Virus genome (UHGV): UHGV-0259231
Origin: a virus
Length of the DNA: 28,453 nucleotides
Strand: one strand, 5' to 3'
The first letter of the stretch is position 1, and each line of letters opens with the position of its first letter. A program made the position numbers and the translations under genes. A model generated the notes under the pieces. It was given only the letters and a program-made list of their open reading frames with translations, was not told where the DNA came from and did not search any database. This document shows, piece by piece, positions 1-9,042 of the stretch.

Positions 1-569
1 GTCGATCCCCTGACAAGGAAATGTGAACCATGGACATCAACGCGTCATAAATGTTTACGCAAGTGCACAATGCACCCTTTCCACTATCAACAAGGAGGAG
101 CAGAAACTGTGTAAATCGTACAATGGTAAGACTTATCAAAAATACAGGTTAATTTTGGTATTTAAACCTTTTTTACTTGTTAGTATGATACAAAGGCTTT
201 CAAAAAAGCTGGGAAATTCAACAACTCTTGGAAATTATGGACTTTGTCCCGCGGCTTTAATCTGACGGCCGCGTTCCTTTTTTGACTCAATTATTGACCC
301 CTTCTCTACGCAACTTCAGTTCCCACCACCAACTTTGCGGCAGTTTCATAGGATGAATGTCTAAAAGAATAATGGTGACCGATAAGAAAACGACTGAATA
401 ACTGCACATTTTCGCTCGAAAGCTTCCTGTCAGATCCATAGCGGATCAAGTGCTGAATGTCACAGTATCGAACAGAAAACAGTGACGATCTAACCCTTCA
501 AGAATATTCTACGATTGTTCTGTTTAGGAAAAGCAAGGCGGGAAGTCAGGAGATAAGTCATTGATAAAG

Positions 570-631
570 TGGCGGAGAGAGGGGGATTTGAACCCCCGGT
601 AGAGTTGCCCCTACTCCGGTTTTCGAGACCG
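570..631 (-). other. attR core: 3'-terminal 62 nt of a tRNA-Ser(CGA) gene (serU-like), lacking the 5' half
   Basis: Minus-strand reading gives CGGTCTCGAAAACCGGAGTAGGGGCAACTCTACCGGGGGTTCAAATCCCCCTCTCTCCGCCA: anticodon loop with CGA, long class-II variable arm, T-arm and CCA end. The sequence expected for the D-arm and 5' acceptor is absent after position 631. Confidence 0.7.
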
Positions 632-847
632 ATGATACAGAGTCGAAAAATCAAAGAGTTAAAAACTTTTCTTGGAATAAATGTCTTAAAATCGTACACG
701 AAAAATCAATAAATTACATAACATTAAAGAAGAATATTCCAAGCCTTCTTGAGGCCACCACCTGTTTTCAGGTGTCATTCAGACGTGATTTACCCCAGAT
801 TGGGTAAGCACGCTTTTTTTCTCAGCTTATTCCGTTTTGCCTGTGTG

Positions 848-875
848 TTGAATAATTCCACTGCAGTTATATAAA
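848..875 (+). promoter_or_regulatory. Candidate sigma70 promoter on the plus strand (TTGAAT, 16-bp spacer, TATAAA)
   Basis: Hexamers at 848-853 and 870-875. The region is AT-rich, so a chance match is possible. Confidence 0.2.
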
Positions 876-929
876 ATCGGTAACGGCTGGAAATCATTCA
901 ATACTCGCACTATCGAAAGTTAACCAGCC

Positions 930-970
930 AGCCGCAGTATCCTATCATGACAAGTTACTGCGGCTTTTTA
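930..970 (+). terminator. Plus-strand intrinsic terminator (10-bp stem AGCCGCAGTA/TACTGCGGCT, 16-nt loop, T-run)
   Basis: Perfect inverted repeat 930-939 / 956-965 followed by TTTTTACTTTTTATATTT on the plus strand. It is convergent with the minus-strand gene that ends at 981. Confidence 0.4.
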
Positions 971-980
971 CTTTTTATAT

Positions 981-1268
981 TTAACGGATCAACATCCAGA
1001 TCAGCAGACACGCCACCACCGGCACAGCAAAATCCATCAGGCTTGCCACATCCCACACGCGCGGATCAAAACCGCCCCACCACGGCATGTTAATCCTCTT
1101 GCCATGCCCAAACATTTCAATCCAGCGATATTCTGCCTGGGTGTGTTCACGCGCAATGAAGAACGTACAACCGGCTATCGCCCCGTAAGCCCAGTTCCCG
1201 GTAAAAAGACCAATCAGTAGCTGCGCAGCCACAGCACAAAGCGCATGAAGGAAAGGTGTTATATCCAT
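981..1268 (-). CDS. Small hydrophobic (multi-pass membrane) protein of unknown function, about 95 aa
   Basis: ORF with ATG at 1268 (alternative ATG at 1274; the ORF-track start at 1283 is TTG). An AGGA Shine-Dalgarno lies about 6 nt upstream. The translation has two to three hydrophobic stretches. Confidence 0.5.
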   Translation of the reverse strand: MDITPFLHALCAVAAQLLIGLFTGNWAYGAIAGCTFFIAREHTQAEYRWIEMFGHGKRINMPWWGGFDPRVWDVASLMDFAVPVVACLLIWMLIR

Positions 1269-1280
1269 TTTCATCCTACC

Positions 1281-1304
1281 CAATAAAACGGGGCGCTCGG
1301 CCCC
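1281..1304 (-). terminator. Intrinsic terminator downstream of the distal fibre gene
   Basis: GGGGC/GCCCC stem with a 5-nt loop, followed on the minus strand by GTTTTATT. Confidence 0.45.
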
Positions 1305-1310
1305 TTGATA

Positions 1311-2351
1311 TTATTTAGACGCAAGCGCCGCCTCAATTGCAGATAATCTTTGTCTTAATTCTGCGTTTTCTTCTTCCAGTGCTGTTATTCTGTCGTCTGA
1401 CTCTCTGGCTACCTGAACAAGCAAGCCAGTAACACCAGAATAATCTACTGTGTAATAACGTTCACCTTCTTCACCTTCCGATCCGCTTGCACCGTCCTGA
1501 TATTTCATTGCGGAACCTACAACTTCTGGGATTGCTTCCAGAGCTTCCTGTGCAATGACACCAGCATAGGGCATACCGTTTTCTTTAAGCGTGTATGTAT
1601 AGCCGTTCATTTTACGGATGCGGTCGGTTGCATTATCGATCACCTGAATGTTGTCTTTCAGATCCCGGTCGGAATGCTGGTTAAATGCGGTGGCATGACA
1701 TGCACCATTAACGCTTAACATATAGGTGTTATCGGTATTTTTCTGCGCATAGAACATATAAGCGCCACCATCAGCACCAACTTCATATACAACCGGACGG
1801 GTAGAGTTACCCCACAAACTAGTAGTAGCGCCAGAATGAGCGGTTCCCTGTGTGTTGATTGTCATGGTTGACCCATGATTGGCATATTTGATTTGTAATG
1901 TGTCTGTGCAGTCAAACTTAATAAGCGCGTTACTTCCCCGCACACCATACGACATGAGACAGTTCCCCATCTTAAGGTAACCATCACTGCCTGGAAAAAT
2001 TAATGTTCCACCGTAAAGATCGCTAAAATCCCAAAAGATACCTTTTGTTCCATTGTGTGTGACAATCCTTGTCATTGTATCTTTTGTACCGTCAATATTT
2101 TTTCTAGTGTACATCTCACTATAAGCGTTTTCGGTTTCTCCTGTCTTATTTGACAAGTGAATCTTACCGCTAAATATAGTTCCAGTGGTCGGCAATGTCT
2201 TTTGATCATAGATTACATTGCAATAACTATTCCATGTTGTTTTATTGTCTACATATGATTTTGTTGCGTAGCTTCCTTGATCGTTTTTTAATTTGCTAAC
2301 GTCGGATTTTAGCGTTTTGATGTCTTCAGGAATTACTGTCGATGTAGCCAT
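1311..2351 (-). CDS. Tail fibre / receptor-binding protein with C-terminal intramolecular chaperone (peptidase S74-type) domain
   Basis: The C-terminal 110 aa (SDRDLKDNIQVI ... GVIAQEALEAIPEVV ... YYTVDYSGVTGLLVQVARE ... coiled coil) fit the auto-cleaving chaperone domain of endosialidase/L-shaped tail fibres. The N-terminal 230 aa are Ser/Thr/Gly/Asn-rich and beta-rich, and the DNA is visibly AT-rich. GGAAG Shine-Dalgarno upstream. Confidence 0.6.
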   Translation of the reverse strand: MATSTVIPEDIKTLKSDVSKLKNDQGSYATKSYVDNKTTWNSYCNVIYDQKTLPTTGTIFSGKIHLSNKTGETENAYSEMYTRKNIDGTKDTMTRIVTHNGTKGIFWDFSDLYGGTLIFPGSDGYLKMGNCLMSYGVRGSNALIKFDCTDTLQIKYANHGSTMTINTQGTAHSGATTSLWGNSTRPVVYEVGADGGAYMFYAQKNTDNTYMLSVNGACHATAFNQHSDRDLKDNIQVIDNATDRIRKMNGYTYTLKENGMPYAGVIAQEALEAIPEVVGSAMKYQDGASGSEGEEGERYYTVDYSGVTGLLVQVARESDDRITALEEENAELRQRLSAIEAALASK

Positions 2352-2360
2352 TTTTCTTCC

Positions 2361-2642
2361 TCACATCCAGCCACGAAGTTGATGCTCAACAGCAACCACG
2401 TATTCATCGAATATTGACGATTTTTTTGCATCATTAATGATGCGCACGTTTACAAAATATCCGTCTTCCTTAACACATACCGGCTCGCCATCTTCGGTAA
2501 GTTCTCCGGTTTCTTTGTACACGTTACCTATCACGTCAATAAGAATATCATCCTGCATCGACTCGTCATCATAATAGCCGGCACTCTCCATAAAGGCCGA
2601 AAAGTCGGCCCTGTCGGCAAATTTGAGTGTTAAATCTTTCAT
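2361..2642 (-). CDS. Acidic 93-aa hypothetical protein, translationally coupled to stf (possible fibre assembly factor)
   Basis: Its ATG at 2642 shares one nucleotide with the Stf stop codon (TAATG), and it sits 9 nt upstream of the next fibre gene. No family recognised. Confidence 0.5.
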   Translation of the reverse strand: MKDLTLKFADRADFSAFMESAGYYDDESMQDDILIDVIGNVYKETGELTEDGEPVCVKEDGYFVNVRIINDAKKSSIFDEYVVAVEHQLRGWM

Positions 2643-4831
2643 TAGATTGACTCCCCCACCTGAGCATCAGTCAATGCCTTGTGCCATATTCTGAAATTCC
2701 TGACATGACCAAATAAATGACGCAACCCGGCTGTAGTCTGGCCTCCAATACGGATAATTGCGGTGTTCTGAATATAGGACCATGTGGCTTTCTTTTCGCT
2801 GGATATACGCCCGTTACTTACTGAGCACGTAGACTGATCTGACTTTACACGCATCCCCATAACCATTTTTTCAAGCGATGCGTTTTCGTTTACCCGTCTG
2901 TTAGCCAAACCTATATCGCAATAAGGAAATCCGTCGTAATCTGTTGAACGACCGAAGCCAAGAATAATAGCCGCTCCGGTTTGATGACCGCCGGTATCAA
3001 AAACACGCGGTGCTGCATTTGGCGTTTTATACCAGTTCTTATGTACCTCACAAAGAACTGTAAAAGGAAGATTATAAAGGTTATTCTTGATTGGGACTGT
3101 CACCATATCGCTTGCGCGAGTGCTTGCAATTATATCAGTTACAATAAATGACGAAGCACTTGATCCACCTTCCACTTGTGGAGTTGCGATATCCAGATAG
3201 TCTCCAGATGCTGTGCCTGAACCTTTTACTGGAGCATATTGAACCATCGCACCAATCATGCTCTCTGTATCTAGTGCATTAATTGTAGCCTGATAGAAAA
3301 TCCAACCAGTAGCCTCATCTTTTACAGCCTTTGCAATAATACGATTTGCTGCACCACCAGTCTTATCAATTACAAGTGTTGATAAATTGAGGTAAGCATC
3401 TCCCAAAAAAGTGTAAGTAGAACCATCATGATGTTCAAATCTTAAACGACACCTTATATTTTCAACATCACTTCTGACACGGCATGAAATGGTCACATAT
3501 TTTTCATCACCTGTGACATCAAATCCTTTACTGCCAGAAACCGTTACGATATTAATCGCACTTGTCTGATCAATAAGAGTATCTTTTACAGTAAATCTCC
3601 CATAAGTAAAATTAAAAGAATCCGTGGATATTTCTGTGAGTTCCAGATTGCCTGACTTATTCCATTTAGATGGATTTGTTGAATTAAGCAGAAGATTAGT
3701 TCTTTGCCCCTCAATAAGCAGGCCATCACGTTCAAATCGCGGCTCGTCAATGGCAGCCTCTGTCAGTACACCAGATTTATTAATATAGGTTGCTTTCGAT
3801 GCGCGTTTAAACTTAACAACCTTGTCACCAGGCATCGTTATTTCGTCGTCGCCAATAACAATCTTTTTATATGATGGCGAAAAGCCCGTAATCATATCCA
3901 GTGAATCGTTAAACGGTATCCACACATCGGGAAGCGGCTGCAAAACTTGTTTATACGGCTCCGCAGCCTGGCTTGCATACTCTCTGGCTGCGTCTTCACT
4001 TGCTTTTGCAGCCGTCTGGCTTGCAGCGGATGCTTTCGCCGAGTTAGCCGCCGCAGTCTCGCTCGCCTTTGCGTTGGTTTCACTGGTTTTTGCAGCTTTT
4101 TGACTGTTGGCTGATGCAGTGGCAGAAGAAGCCGCCGCACTTGCAGAACCAGCTGCGGCACTCTCGCTTTGGGCTGCAGCATCCTGACTGTTTTTCGCCG
4201 CAGTTTCACTGGCTTTGGCATTCGTTTCGCTGGTCTTCGCTGCCGTCTGGCTGGACTTTGCGTTGGTTTCGCTCGTCTTTGCGGCTGTCTCGCTGTTTTT
4301 CGCGTTGGTTTCTGATTTTTTGGCTGCTGTCGCGGAGTTTGCCGATGCAGTCTGTGAGGTCGCTGCCGCCTGTGCGCTGTTAGCTGCATTCGTTTCTGAG
4401 GTTTTCGCCGCGTTCTTCGATGATGCCGCTGCAGTTTCGGATTTCTTTGCCGCCGCTGCGCTCTGAGAGGCGGCTTCGGCGTTGCGTGCCGCTTCTTCCA
4501 CCATTGCCTCAAAACGACGCAATGCCTCCGGCATGACATCATCTTCCGTCATGGCACCGAGAAAATCATTCAGCGTACCTGGTCTGGAACCTTCATAGAC
4601 GGTAATGGTCCCGGCATGTGAAGGCGGAAAACCTTCAACCAGCAGGGTGACGCTGTACTGGCCATACTCAACATCCATGCTGTAACGTCCGGCTTCATCC
4701 GGATTTTCAGAAGCCACCGTGTTCACCAGTACCGTGGTGCTGTTACGCTTTGCCTTCAGTTGAATAGTGCAGTTCTGTATTGGTTTTCCCGCACCATCTT
4801 TCAGCACACCTGAGATTTTTACTGCTGCCAT
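2642..4831 (-). CDS. stf: Side tail fibre protein Stf (lambda-like N-terminus, Ala/Ser-rich repeats, distinct C-terminal receptor-binding domain)
   Basis: The N-terminal 110 aa (MAAVKISGVLKDGAGKPIQNCTIQLKAKRNSTT...) are near-identical to lambda Stf as remembered. A central AAKTSETNAK-type repeat region follows. The C-terminal 430 aa are unrelated to lambda and end in a ...RNFRIWHKALTDAQV motif resembling LamG/ConA-like jelly-roll domains. ATG at 4831 has a GGAG Shine-Dalgarno; the ORF-track start at 4837 is GTG. Confidence 0.8.
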   Translation of the reverse strand: MAAVKISGVLKDGAGKPIQNCTIQLKAKRNSTTVLVNTVASENPDEAGRYSMDVEYGQYSVTLLVEGFPPSHAGTITVYEGSRPGTLNDFLGAMTEDDVMPEALRRFEAMVEEAARNAEAASQSAAAAKKSETAAASSKNAAKTSETNAANSAQAAATSQTASANSATAAKKSETNAKNSETAAKTSETNAKSSQTAAKTSETNAKASETAAKNSQDAAAQSESAAAGSASAAASSATASANSQKAAKTSETNAKASETAAANSAKASAASQTAAKASEDAAREYASQAAEPYKQVLQPLPDVWIPFNDSLDMITGFSPSYKKIVIGDDEITMPGDKVVKFKRASKATYINKSGVLTEAAIDEPRFERDGLLIEGQRTNLLLNSTNPSKWNKSGNLELTEISTDSFNFTYGRFTVKDTLIDQTSAINIVTVSGSKGFDVTGDEKYVTISCRVRSDVENIRCRLRFEHHDGSTYTFLGDAYLNLSTLVIDKTGGAANRIIAKAVKDEATGWIFYQATINALDTESMIGAMVQYAPVKGSGTASGDYLDIATPQVEGGSSASSFIVTDIIASTRASDMVTVPIKNNLYNLPFTVLCEVHKNWYKTPNAAPRVFDTGGHQTGAAIILGFGRSTDYDGFPYCDIGLANRRVNENASLEKMVMGMRVKSDQSTCSVSNGRISSEKKATWSYIQNTAIIRIGGQTTAGLRHLFGHVRNFRIWHKALTDAQVGESI
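3982..4480 (-). repeat. Coding tandem repeat array (about 33-nt units encoding AAKTSETNAKxS motifs) inside stf
   Basis: Repeated GCnnnnAAAACCAGCGAAACnAAnGC-like units are visible on the coding strand. They generate the overlapping alternative-frame ORFs at 3822-4542. Confidence 0.7.
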
Positions 4832-4895: not shown

Positions 4896-5495
4896 TCAGA
4901 ATTTATAACCGACACCCACGATGAAACCGTCAGTGCGCCAGTCACCACTGCCGGAGCCTTCATAAGCAATATCAATGGCCACGGATTCGGTCGGGTTAAA
5001 CTGCACGCCAGCTCCCCACGCCAGAGACGTGTTGCTGTGGCGACCGTCATCACTTCCGGTCAGCACATCGTGCGTTTTCCCCTTGTTGTCAGTTACGCGG
5101 AGATAATCCCCGGAGAACGTCGAAACACGGCTGTAAGCCACACCTGCCATCGCATAAGCACTGAACCATTCATTCACGCGTACAGATGGCCCCGCCATCA
5201 TGCTGAACCAGCGGTTACGCACTGAATCTTCATGCCAGCGGGTATCGCTGTAATGCGTTTTTTGCTCATCTTTGGCATTGGCATAACTGAATGACGTCAC
5301 CAGCCCCAGCGTGTCCGTAAATTCATAACGGTATTTCACGTTAATGCCCTTCAGGTCATCACTGCCTGGCATATCAGTATGGGTCTGAAGATACCCGGCG
5401 CTTAGTGTGGACTGATGCTCTGCTGCGCTCGCTGGCGTACCAGCGGCAACCAGCCAGACTACTGCGGACAGAATAACAGCACATAATTTACGCAT
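4896..5495 (-). CDS. lom: Lom outer-membrane protein (Ail/Lom family) with signal peptide
   Basis: Translation is near-identical to lambda Lom as remembered (…STLSAGY…GINVKYRYEFTDTLGLVTSFSY … ends GFIVGVGYKF). N-terminal signal peptide present. Confidence 0.9.
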   Translation of the reverse strand: MRKLCAVILSAVVWLVAAGTPASAAEHQSTLSAGYLQTHTDMPGSDDLKGINVKYRYEFTDTLGLVTSFSYANAKDEQKTHYSDTRWHEDSVRNRWFSMMAGPSVRVNEWFSAYAMAGVAYSRVSTFSGDYLRVTDNKGKTHDVLTGSDDGRHSNTSLAWGAGVQFNPTESVAIDIAYEGSGSGDWRTDGFIVGVGYKF

Positions 5496-5562: not shown

Positions 5563-8500
5563 TCAGCTGATACTGATGCCTGCGGTGGCTTTCTTCATCA
5601 CCACAACCAGCAAATCGCTGATACTTGCTGTGGGATACCAGTCATTTACCAGCCATGCTGACACCGAAAACTCCAGCGTCATGTGACCGTGACCGGCAGG
5701 CATATCAATAACGCCACTGTAAATCAGCGTATTATCCAGCGCGGTACGGTTATAAATTTCAGCACCGTTTTTCCGCACTATCAGACGGCATGAGGAGTAA
5801 ATATCAGTATGCTCTCTCTCATGCTTAGCGCCGCTGAATGCCACCGCCGGAATAACAATCTGCCGGTCAAACGGCTGATCGTCATAAATCCTGACGGTAA
5901 TGGTCCCTGATGGCCAGCGTTCCGGTGCACGGGAGTCCCGGGGGAAAGCTTTGCCCACTGTTTTAACGAGATCGCCTTCAATCTGGTTCGCGGACAGTTT
6001 TCCCAGAACCCGGCAGTTCTCGTTAATCGTGACGTTGTTGAGCGTCCCGGAGTTCGCATTCACGTTACCGCTGATATCGGCATTTTTCGCCGTCAGCCGC
6101 CCGTCCGGTGTCAGGGAAAATGCCGGAGGATTACCGCCGCTGGTAATGGTGGGAGCCGTCAGATATTTCAGGAACACTTCGTTCATGAATATCTGATCGC
6201 CCTGACCAACAAACATCGGCTTTGTGTTGCCATTCGCAGGATTAACCATCGCAATCCTGTCCGCCGCCAGCAGCACCTGACTCTGCATGCCGTCAGGGGT
6301 ATTCTCAATACCGGCACCAATACCCGCGATATAAAGGCGTCCGTCCTGCATCTGCTGCAGCTTCACAGCCCACATGCTGTTCAGGTTATTATTTGTATCA
6401 ACCTGAACCTTCTGTATCTGCTGAATTGCCGCACTCTGGTCTTCCAGTTTCTTATTGACGGTCTGCGTGACTTCATTGCTGACATCCGTAATGGACGTCC
6501 TGATTTCAGCCAGGTCAGGCGCAAGCTGACCGTTATCAATCTGCGTCCACAGCTCCTGAGCCAGATGGGTTTTCCCTATCTCGCCTTTGAAAAAATCCAG
6601 ATAGCCGGATGCATCATCACTCGGCTGGCTAACAGCCTCCACGAATGCCGATTTGCCAACGGTGTTCACACTGCGGATATAAAAGTAATAATCATGGCCC
6701 GGTTTGATATTGATACTGGCGGCTATCCAGTACAGCCCCGTGCCAAGGTAGCGGGCTGTGGTTTCAACCTGCCTGATATCGGTAATCCGCGTTTCCGAGA
6801 ACCAGAACTCAAATTGTACCGTCGGATCATAAACCGCAAGATGCGGCGTGGCGGTTATCTGAAAATAGCCCGGTGTCAGCTCAATCCGAGACGGCGCTGC
6901 CGGTGCGGCAATCCGGAACGATACCGATGCCGGCTCGCCCTGCTGTCCCCACGCATTTACAGCCCGGACAGTCAGCCTGTAGTTCCCCAGCGCCAGTTGC
7001 GTGAAGCGGTATGTGGTTTCCGTCGTCCGGGCCGTGCTGACCAGCCGCTCACTGCCGTCATCCGCTGTTACGGTCAGACGGAGCAGGAAGCTCACGCCCT
7101 TCACCACCTTCGGCGTGTCCCAGCGCGCCAGCACCTGATATTCCCCGCTGTCTGCGGTGACTTCGGCGGTCAGGTGCTGCACCGCTGGCGGCGTGACACC
7201 ATTCACCGTGCCGCTCTGGTCGCCGTCAAAGTGCGCCCCGTTATCCACGATGGCCTCTTTTTCCGGTACATGCTGCACGGCAGTGATGGCATACGTGCCG
7301 TCATCGTTCTCACGGATACTCACACAGCGGAACAGGCGCTGGCGCAACGTCGGCAACTTCAGCCCCCACACGCTGTATTCAGCAACGCCGTCAGGAACCC
7401 GGCTCACTTTCACCTTCACGCCGTCGGTGACGGACTGAACCTCCACGCTGACCGGATTGCCATTTCCGTCAACCAGGCTTATCAGCGTGGTGCCGGAGGA
7501 TGGCAGCGTGATTTCACGGTCGAGCGTCAGCGTCCGGGTCTGGCTGTTCACCGCCAGCACGCGACCACCGGTGCTGATACCGGCATAGTCATCATCGCAG
7601 ATTTCAATGACATCGCCCGGCACATGGCGAAGCCCTTCAGCACCCACGCTGAAGTCCACGGTCTGCGTTTCCAGCAGCTCCGTTTTAATCAGCCACAGCC
7701 CGGCTCGGTGTGCCTGCCCCCGGCTGGTACAGCCAAAGGCATCCATTTTCGTGACGTTACGACCGTAACGGGCAATGGCCTGCGTATCCTCCACAAGCTC
7801 TGTCGCCGTCTCCCAGCCGTTATTCGGGTCAATCCAGTTCACCTCAACGGCATTATGGCGGTCCTTCAGGGCGCTGAAGCTGTAGCGGAACGGCGCACCA
7901 TCATCCGGCATCACCACATTACTGCGGTTATAGGTCCACACCTTATCTGATGGCCGGTCCTGCACGAACGTCAGCGTCTGCCCGTTCCATACCGGCATAC
8001 AGCGCATCGCCGAGCAGAAATCACTGAGCACATCCCACGCCTTGCGCTGTGTGGTCAGGTACGCATTACAGGTGATGCGCGGCTCCGTGCCGCCAAAGCC
8101 GTCCGGCACTGACTGGTCGCAGTACTGGCCGATGACATACAGCGCCCATTTATCCACATCCGCCGCACCAAGACGTTTCCCCATGCCGTAGCGCGGATGG
8201 GTCAGCATATCCCACAGACACCAGGCCATGTTGTTGCTGTATGCCGGTTTAAACGTTCCGTCCCAGATACCGCTGTATTGCCGCGTCTGCGGGTTATAAT
8301 TCGACGGCACCTGCAGAATACGCCCGCGCAGATGATAATTACGGCTCACCTGCTGGCTGCCGAACTGCTCCGAGTCCACCTGCACGCCGACCAGTGCCGT
8401 GTTCGGGTAGCACTGTTTCACATCGATGATTTCGGTGTATGACGACCAGAGCGTTTTGTTCTGCAGCTGGTCTGTGGTGCTGTCCGGCGTCATCCTGCGC

Positions 8501-9042
8501 ATCCGTATATTGAACGGGCGCGGCGGCAGGTTACCCACCACCACCGAGGCCAGATACTGCGAGGTGGTTTTGCCCTTAATGGTGATGTCTTTTTCCGTCA
8601 CCCAGCCACCATTACGCTGTATCTGAACCAGCAGGCGGACTTCCGACGGATTCCTGTCCCCCTTTGAGGTGGTTTCCACCAGTGCCTGCACGCCGAAGGT
8701 AAAACGCAGTCGGTCAATGTTTGCCGACGTGATGGTCCGGGTGATCGGCGTGTCGTATTTCACTTCCGTACCCAGCACCGTCTCGGAGCCGGAGGATTCA
8801 AATCCCTCCGGCGGTGTCTGCTCCTGCTCACCGGCCCGGAACACCACCGTGACGCCGGAGATGTTGGTATTCCCCTCACTGTCCAGCACTGGCGTACTGT
8901 TCAGCAGCACGCTTTTTAATCCATCCACCGGACCTTCAATCGGCCCTTCGCTGATGGCATCAATCACACTCAGCAGTTGCGTGGATTTCAGGTTGTCCTT
9001 CGCTTCGCGCGGGGTATGCCCCTTACTGCTGCCTTTACCCAT
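5563..9042 (-). CDS. J: Tail tip / host specificity protein J (central tail fibre)
   Basis: 1159 aa. The N-terminus [45 protein letters not shown] and most of the length match lambda gpJ as remembered; the C-terminal receptor-binding region diverges. Confidence 0.93.

Follow-up and report, generated by a model that had tools for sequence, protein, structure and literature searches.

A lambda-type side tail fibre gene with a C-terminal module of two predicted jelly rolls in an Escherichia coli prophage

The stf locus

We analysed a stretch of 28,453 nucleotides (nt) of virus genome UHGV-0259231, below called the window, which is an E. coli lambdoid prophage adjoining yodB/zinT. The subject of this work is its side tail fibre gene, stf. 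It is a single intact open reading frame (ORF) on the minus strand (window 2642-4831/4837) which, from the ATG at 4831, encodes 729 amino acids (aa) and starts with MAAVKISGV as in lambda Stf. The PHROGs family phrog_1419 covers the protein over its full length (1356 bits). The lambda gene order is kept, with J (5563-9042) followed by lom (4896-5495; PF06316) and then stf. A preliminary description, made from the DNA letters alone, had called the gene chimeric, and it is: a lambda-type anchor and shaft are joined to a C-terminal module that is absent from lambda Stf. The parts of the gene are as follows.

2642..4831, minus strand: stf, side tail fibre proximal subunit, 729 aa, stop TAA at 2642-2644 (ORF list; phrog_1419; exact entry at NCBI)
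4547..4831, minus strand: collar (virion attachment) domain, aa 1-95 (PF08400; PDB 9e7m; 88% identity to lambda)
3959..4483, minus strand: shaft of 25 uninterrupted heptads, aa 117-291, predicted trimeric coiled coil (autocorrelation; register listing; orf-401 alignment)
4097..4285, minus strand: 63-aa (189-nt, 9-heptad) unit of variable copy number, aa 183-245 (LR-60 alignment; length classes)
3812..3946, minus strand: conserved connector PLPDVWIPFNDSL…, aa 296-340, start of the portable module (71-96% identity across phage groups)
3107..3811, minus strand: jelly-roll domain 1, of the 'GTA head spike fibre' type (GTA, gene transfer agent), aa 341-575
2645..3106, minus strand: jelly-roll domain 2, pentraxin/LamG/CBM-like, aa 576-729

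Collar and shaft are of lambda type

The N-terminal part of the protein was described earlier as that of lambda Stf, and database matches bear this out. Specifically, the Pfam family PF08400 (phage_tail_N) matches aa 3-132 (E 9e-67; 223.7 bits against a cut-off of 26.6), and in a PDB sequence search the solved collar of Ur-lambda Stf (9e7m) matches aa 3-95 (E 7e-49). Compared with lambda orf-401, aa 3-95 are 88% and aa 3-110 are 85% identical.

Behind the collar the preliminary description had placed an array of roughly 11-aa repeats, between a lambda head and a foreign tail. The array exists, at nt ~3959-4483 and thus close to the 3982-4480 first given, and lies far above chance; its period, however, is 7 aa. 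Self-match is 0.42-0.49 at lags 7, 14, 21, 28 and 35 as compared to 0.18 in shuffled sequence (z = 8-12, 500 shuffles; z = 10.8 at lag 7), while at lag 11 there is no excess self-similarity (z = -0.7, the background level). Tandem Repeats Finder detects no periods other than 21 and 42 nt. The heptads of aa 117-291 follow the pattern S-E/Q-T-x-A-K/A-x, with a 14-aa sub-pattern over the 7-aa (21-nt) period, and are rich in Ala, Ser, Thr, Lys and Glu.

The shaft of lambda orf-401 aligns to Stf in register and without gaps up to aa 283, with 47% identity over aa 111-283; beyond aa 284 identity drops to 3%. In a cryo-electron microscopy study of Ur-lambda, residues 102-393 of the lambda protein have been described as the shaft, a trimeric coiled coil (PMC12617516). 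It follows from the gapless alignment and from this assignment that the repeats are the heptads of a lambda-type shaft and not an insert, so that the three-part layout first proposed does not hold and the true module boundary lies at the end of the coil, between …EPYKQVLQ and PLPDVW at aa ~296.

As compared to Ur-lambda Stf (orf-401 plus orf-314), the window gene has the same position after J and lom, the 88% identical collar, a flexible linker and a heptad shaft in register to aa 283. The distal half of the Ur-lambda fibre, comprising a hinge, a gp37-like six-stranded fibre and an OmpC-binding tip, is absent here, and so is the gene for the Tfa chaperone. Instead, the window Stf ends in two jelly rolls, and behind it come the 93-aa gene and, as a separate protein, an outer fibre.

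The C-terminal module is predicted to form two jelly rolls

The C-terminal ~434 aa have no similarity to lambda orf-314 (best E 6). Together with the 3% identity to orf-401 past aa 284 this agrees with the earlier statement that about 430 aa of the protein are unrelated to lambda. Pfam finds no family in this part, beyond the N-terminal domain, and no LamG or pentraxin model matches at E <= 0.1; the fold was therefore taken from a structural model. NCBIfam NF048003, 'phage head spike fiber', matches aa 372-573 with 58.1 bits against a cut-off of 36.

The AlphaFold2 model, built with 45 diverse homologues, has a predicted local distance difference test (pLDDT) score of 92.6 and a predicted template modelling (pTM) score of 0.89. 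It is nearly all beta and consists of two jelly-roll domains. Foldseek supports a fold of the concanavalin A (ConA)/LamG/pentraxin type, and the two-sheet jelly roll is superposable on LamG, pentraxin or CBM40 domains. In a comparison of the sequence profile with PDB sequences, the connector end and domain 1 match the head-spike fibre Rcc01080 of the gene transfer agent RcGTA (6tb9; E 1e-42). The same region matches a phage gp17 fibre, E217 gp45 and Pa193 gp46 (in each case residues ~197-394) at ~1e-16 to 1e-17, and domain 2 matches C-reactive protein weakly (E 1e-3). A PDB search with the single sequence returned only the lambda collar and low-complexity matches to depolymerase shafts. The LamG/ConA-like ending noted in the preliminary description is thus right at the level of fold, on the model and the profile matches; the Pfam domain search gives no LamG family.

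RcGTA Rcc01080, of the 6tb9 and NF048003 family, resembles the module in the homology of connector end and domain 1 and in being a flexible appendage that binds polysaccharide. Binding of this fibre to the capsule polysaccharide of Rhodobacter has been demonstrated experimentally (PMC10218006, PMC7296036). It differs in that it is a single chain, held on the capsid pentons by an N-terminal Leu-Gly peptide rather than on the coiled coil of a tail fibre. It has no match to the second, pentraxin-like domain, and only its residues 2-10 have been resolved experimentally.

We considered whether the module might be a homologue of a baseplate fibre socket, as the top fold match is Pa193 gp46, and rejected this. 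What is common to the module and to Pa193 gp46 and E217 gp45 (PDB 9b45, 8env) is a peripheral domain of a baseplate wedge protein. The loop of gp46 to which the fibre attaches consists of residues 80-113 (PMC11456595); it lies outside the matched region (~199-394 of gp46), so the likeness to gp46 does not point to a fibre socket.

A conserved frame with variable domain bodies, spread over unrelated phages

An exhaustive search returned 2034 cluster representatives at 50% identity, and in those full-length matches that were listed the protein ends with the module. Across the 45 homologues used for the model, aa 296-385, 546-575 and 696-725 are conserved, while sequence varies strongly within the domain bodies (386-545 in domain 1, 576-695 in domain 2). 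In ESCO40, JenP2, Lambda_2G7a and KarlJaspers the connector and frame are 67-96% identical and the domain bodies 19-36%. Such a pattern, with hypervariable bodies set in a conserved frame, is usual for receptor-binding domains.

By tblastn the module is present in 221 phage records, including lambdoid phages, T1-like Drexlerviridae, T5-like Tequintavirus, Nonagvirus and rV5-like myoviruses. The connector (aa 296-340) is 71-96% identical across the lambdoid, T1-like, T5-like and Nonagvirus versions. Inner fibres with the module have unrelated N-terminal anchors (lambda, T5 pb1-type, T1-type), and the passage from an Ala/Ser-rich coil to the PLPDVW connector is common to inner fibres whose anchors differ. 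A virulent T5-like Salmonella phage has 92.7% DNA identity to the window over exactly 2667-3942, that is, over the module alone.

Some of the records that carry an E. coli-type module (45-72% identity) are labelled as Campylobacter or Listeria phages (MG065692.1, MG065653.1, MG065676.1, OR849447.1). These records, some of them unannotated, look like mislabelled or contaminant coliphage sequences.

The downstream cassette

What the preliminary description had missed is that stf makes up just the inner half of a fibre cassette of several genes. Three genes follow it on the same strand.

2361..2642, minus strand: 93-aa accessory gene (phrog_1361, E 2e-46); its ATG overlaps the stf stop (TAATG)
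1311..2351, minus strand: 346-aa distal subunit of the fibre; conserved peptide MATSTVIPEDIKTLK at the N-terminus, S74 intramolecular chaperone at the C-terminal end (aa 227-278 and further) (PF13884; phrog_4563)
981..1283, minus strand: small membrane protein, 100 aa, at the cassette end (phrog_1443; PHROGs)

A homologue of ~92 aa lies downstream of the module in all eight phage records inspected and in 78 of 80 IMG/VR loci, and usually a fibre protein with an S74 chaperone comes next. Only the first ~17-24 residues of these outer fibres are conserved (M-x-T-x-T-x-IP-x-DI-xx-LK) and the remainder is not; this N-terminal peptide is common to the distal fibres of lambdoid, T5-like, T1-like and Nonagvirus phages. 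The exact 346-aa distal protein occurs in 756 contigs. At least two alleles of the outer fibre, of 346 and 234 aa, stand behind near-identical small genes in lambdoid loci (L019-L022, L033-L037 and others). None of the three genes downstream of stf matches a tail-fibre assembly family in Pfam, PHROGs or NCBIfam.

The closest described counterpart is the T5-like phage IrisVonRoten (Bas32), in which a two-part fibre with a lectin-like inner end is already described. The C-terminal 434 aa of its Gp22 (bas32_0022) are 65% identical to the window module, its small protein Gp23 (92 aa) is 36% identical to the 93-aa protein, and its outer fibre Gp24 shares the N-terminal peptide and the S74 chaperone with the 346-aa protein. 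The window thus holds the elements of an IrisVonRoten-type cassette, namely a module of ~430 aa, an overlapping gene of ~92 aa and a distal fibre with the peptide and S74. IrisVonRoten differs in having a T5 pb1-type anchor instead of the lambda collar, and its outer fibre has 574 aa and two receptor-binding domains as compared to 346 aa here. A multimer prediction (AlphaFold-Multimer, BASEL-2) attaches the T-shaped Gp24 to the proximal fibre Gp22 (PMC11990801). The end of Gp22 has been named a 'galectin-like domain', for which a role as a further receptor-binding domain is considered possible (PMC11990801).

In its design the cassette also resembles LtfA/LtfB of phage DT57C, published as a branched fibre (PMC4728585), and gp14/gp15 of phiEco32, where an inner fibre held on the tail carries a second fibre by the N-terminus of the latter and both fibre proteins may bind O-antigen. 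DT57C differs in that LtfA has its own S74-terminated tip and no 92-aa gene is present, and the likeness is one of analogy, not membership. Assignment of the window cassette to the DT57C LtfA/LtfB system was accordingly rejected: neither LtfA and the module nor LtfB and the outer fibre show detectable sequence similarity (best E 0.5 and 1.5), and LtfB has a different N-terminus, without the conserved motif.

The phrog_1443 protein always closes the cassette at the prophage end, standing after the distal fibre or, where this is absent, directly after the small gene. Its hydrophobic stretches look membrane-spanning; possible roles are those of a moron or of an exclusion factor.

Length variation and recombination in the shaft

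The array had been proposed as a site of length variation and recombination, and relatives of the window allele show both. Stf of E. coli LR-60 (792 aa) is identical at all aligned residues and has one additional block of 63 aa, a near-copy of aa 183-245 that is bounded by AAKTSETNAK motifs. The distance from collar to module is 205 aa in the window. Among 48 database proteins that have both anchor and module it is 142, 163, 205, 219 or 268 aa, and 45 of these are in the same heptad phase as the window allele. In 65 IMG/VR loci the distances are 163 aa (11 loci), 227 aa (one), 268 aa (52) and 331 aa (one). The classes of 205, 268 and 331 aa correspond to one, two or three copies of the 63-aa unit: the window has one, most relatives have two (the commonest state in IMG/VR) and one relative has three.

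Similarity to several relatives begins or ends within the array, at window ~4049 for PhiR47_1 and PhiR55_1, at ~4250-4256 for 640R1 and PhiR70_1 and at ~4297 for PhiR11_1. These breakpoints fit a role of the array as a crossover zone. Shaft length changes by gain or loss of the 63-aa unit, which would proceed through recombination between AAKTSETNAK copies, and the low-complexity shaft DNA would also serve as a crossover zone for the exchange of fibre ends.

According to the ORF list, ORFs of 83-216 aa in other frames overlie the repeats; they had been thought spurious from the outset. Among 47 distinct alleles the variable sites in the shaft are distributed 30/32/115 over codon positions 1/2/3 of the stf frame. 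The other-frame ORFs are, on this pattern, best read as by-products of the repeats. Note that the lambda record also annotates an analogous antisense ORF, orf206b.

Discussion

We consider it likely that stf encodes the inner subunit of a two-part side tail fibre, with a collar, a coiled-coil shaft, a lectin-like end module and docking of an outer fibre. By homology, the collar (residues 1-95) fixes the fibre onto the tail tip, and ~25 heptads (aa ~103-291) form a predicted trimeric alpha-helical coiled-coil shaft like that of Ur-lambda. In the end module (residues 296-729), which consists of the connector and two ConA-like jelly rolls, each chain would fold its own module. As each chain probably does so, three lectin-like heads would stand at the end of the coil, and the fibre end probably carries them one per chain. 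These heads probably bind surface polysaccharide, either O-antigen or capsule, in a weak and multivalent way. In favour of glycan binding are the homology of domain 1 to a fibre that binds capsule polysaccharide, the hypervariable bodies within conserved frames, and the loci in which the module stands without an outer fibre. The module, possibly with the co-translated 93-aa protein, would carry the 346-aa outer subunit, which would mature by S74 self-cleavage and attach through its conserved N-terminal peptide.

Docking of the outer fibre on the module is probable. T5-like phages that have the module carry the outer-fibre peptide, while the T5-like DT57C has neither module nor peptide, and therefore the N-terminus of the outer fibre changes together with the end of the inner fibre in one phage family. 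It is chiefly for this covariation that we place the outer fibre on the module or the small protein and not on the tail. Docking is further supported by the recurrence of the module, the ~92-aa gene and the outer fibre behind unrelated virion anchors, and by the multimer prediction published for IrisVonRoten.

Several observations weigh against this picture of the fibre. No sugar-binding site was identified in the module. In the rV5-like version (phage LL12, 824-5595) the module ends a fibre of 1479 aa, the PLPDVW connector is absent (18% identity), and a divergent small protein of 110 aa follows, with no S74 outer fibre evident behind it. In about ten lambdoid loci (L080-L090) and in phage Lambda_2G7a (L008) the module and the small gene stand without an outer fibre. 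These loci show that the module need not serve in docking and can itself be the fibre end.

The same loci bear on the alternatives. The module might be only a structural joint, a 'knee' or socket, with host recognition left solely to the 346-aa distal subunit. Conservation of the cassette and co-inheritance of the distal N-terminal peptide with the module would suit such a joint, as would the usual fibre-tip architecture of the distal subunit, S74 chaperone included. We nevertheless regard it as unlikely: few parts of the protein are as variable as the bodies of its two domains, of which only the frames are conserved, the module is kept in loci that have no outer fibre, and its closest characterised homologue, the RcGTA head-spike fibre, binds polysaccharide. 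Absence of the outer fibre from some loci could also be taken to mean the opposite, namely that the module is the sole tip, that the 346-aa protein is an independent second fibre attached elsewhere or a moron-like remnant, and that their adjacency is mere linkage. This seems to us somewhat less probable still. The outer fibres of lambdoid, T1-like, T5-like and Nonagvirus phages share the N-terminal peptide despite their differing tails. DT57C has a tail near-identical to that of other T5-like phages and an inner fibre without the module, and its second fibre lacks the peptide. Moreover, the published multimer prediction for IrisVonRoten puts the outer fibre on the inner one.

The module might instead be an enzyme of the ConA-like superfamily, a glycan lyase or hydrolase by which capsule or O-antigen would be broken down and not merely bound. 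We hold this to be very improbable, as no enzyme family was matched in Pfam or NCBIfam and the few invariant columns contain no conspicuous acidic pair of the GH16 type.

The inner-subunit reading, which we prefer, can be carried further, to a collectin-like device. Three independent lectin heads on a trimeric coiled-coil neck would bind polysaccharide and at the same time hold an exchangeable outer fibre via the 93-aa adaptor, and the copy number of the 63-aa unit would tune the reach to the thickness of O-antigen or capsule. We put this forward as a tentative proposal, more doubtful than the reading on which it builds. If true, lambdoid prophages would possess a fibre that branches and addresses two receptors.

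The gene is a further clear example of tail-fibre mosaicism, in which temperate lambdoid prophages exchange a single receptor-end module with virulent T5-like and T1-like phages and the crossover zone is a low-complexity coiled coil; its scientific interest is modest. The parts described here, that is, the collar, the heptad shaft, the PLPDVW connector, the two variable jelly rolls, the small gene and the N-terminal peptide of the outer fibre, offer natural splice points for the engineering of lambda-type fibres. The same boundaries could improve the uninformative annotation 'prophage tail fiber N-terminal domain-containing protein'.

Occurrence and other features of the window

It is under this name that the exact 729-aa protein is found at NCBI, in ten contigs; the 90% cluster that holds it has 1268 members. 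Some part of stf is matched in 4796 of 5426 complete E. coli genomes, and at least 80% of the gene in 177. Databases and the literature already cover its sequence, family and architecture, and it is an ordinary catalogued lambda-like side tail fibre.

The end of the prophage (window 1-1300) is 100% identical to E. coli SMS-3-5 (NC_010498.1) beside yodB/zinT. The stf counterpart in SMS-3-5 is a pseudogene with an IS3-family element inserted near its 3' end; because its stf is broken in this way, the SMS-3-5 prophage is a relative of the window and not identical to it.

Four tRNA genes lie within the prophage on the minus strand at 25778-26087 (Gly-tcc, Thr-tgt, Lys-ttt and Met-cat). Over the whole window Rfam matches these four tRNAs only, and the fibre region has no match; at 490-699, where a tRNA-like translation is seen, ARAGORN finds no tRNA gene. 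Antisense within gene J runs an ORF of 461 aa (6565-7950, plus strand), which is very probably a by-product of composition and not a gene.

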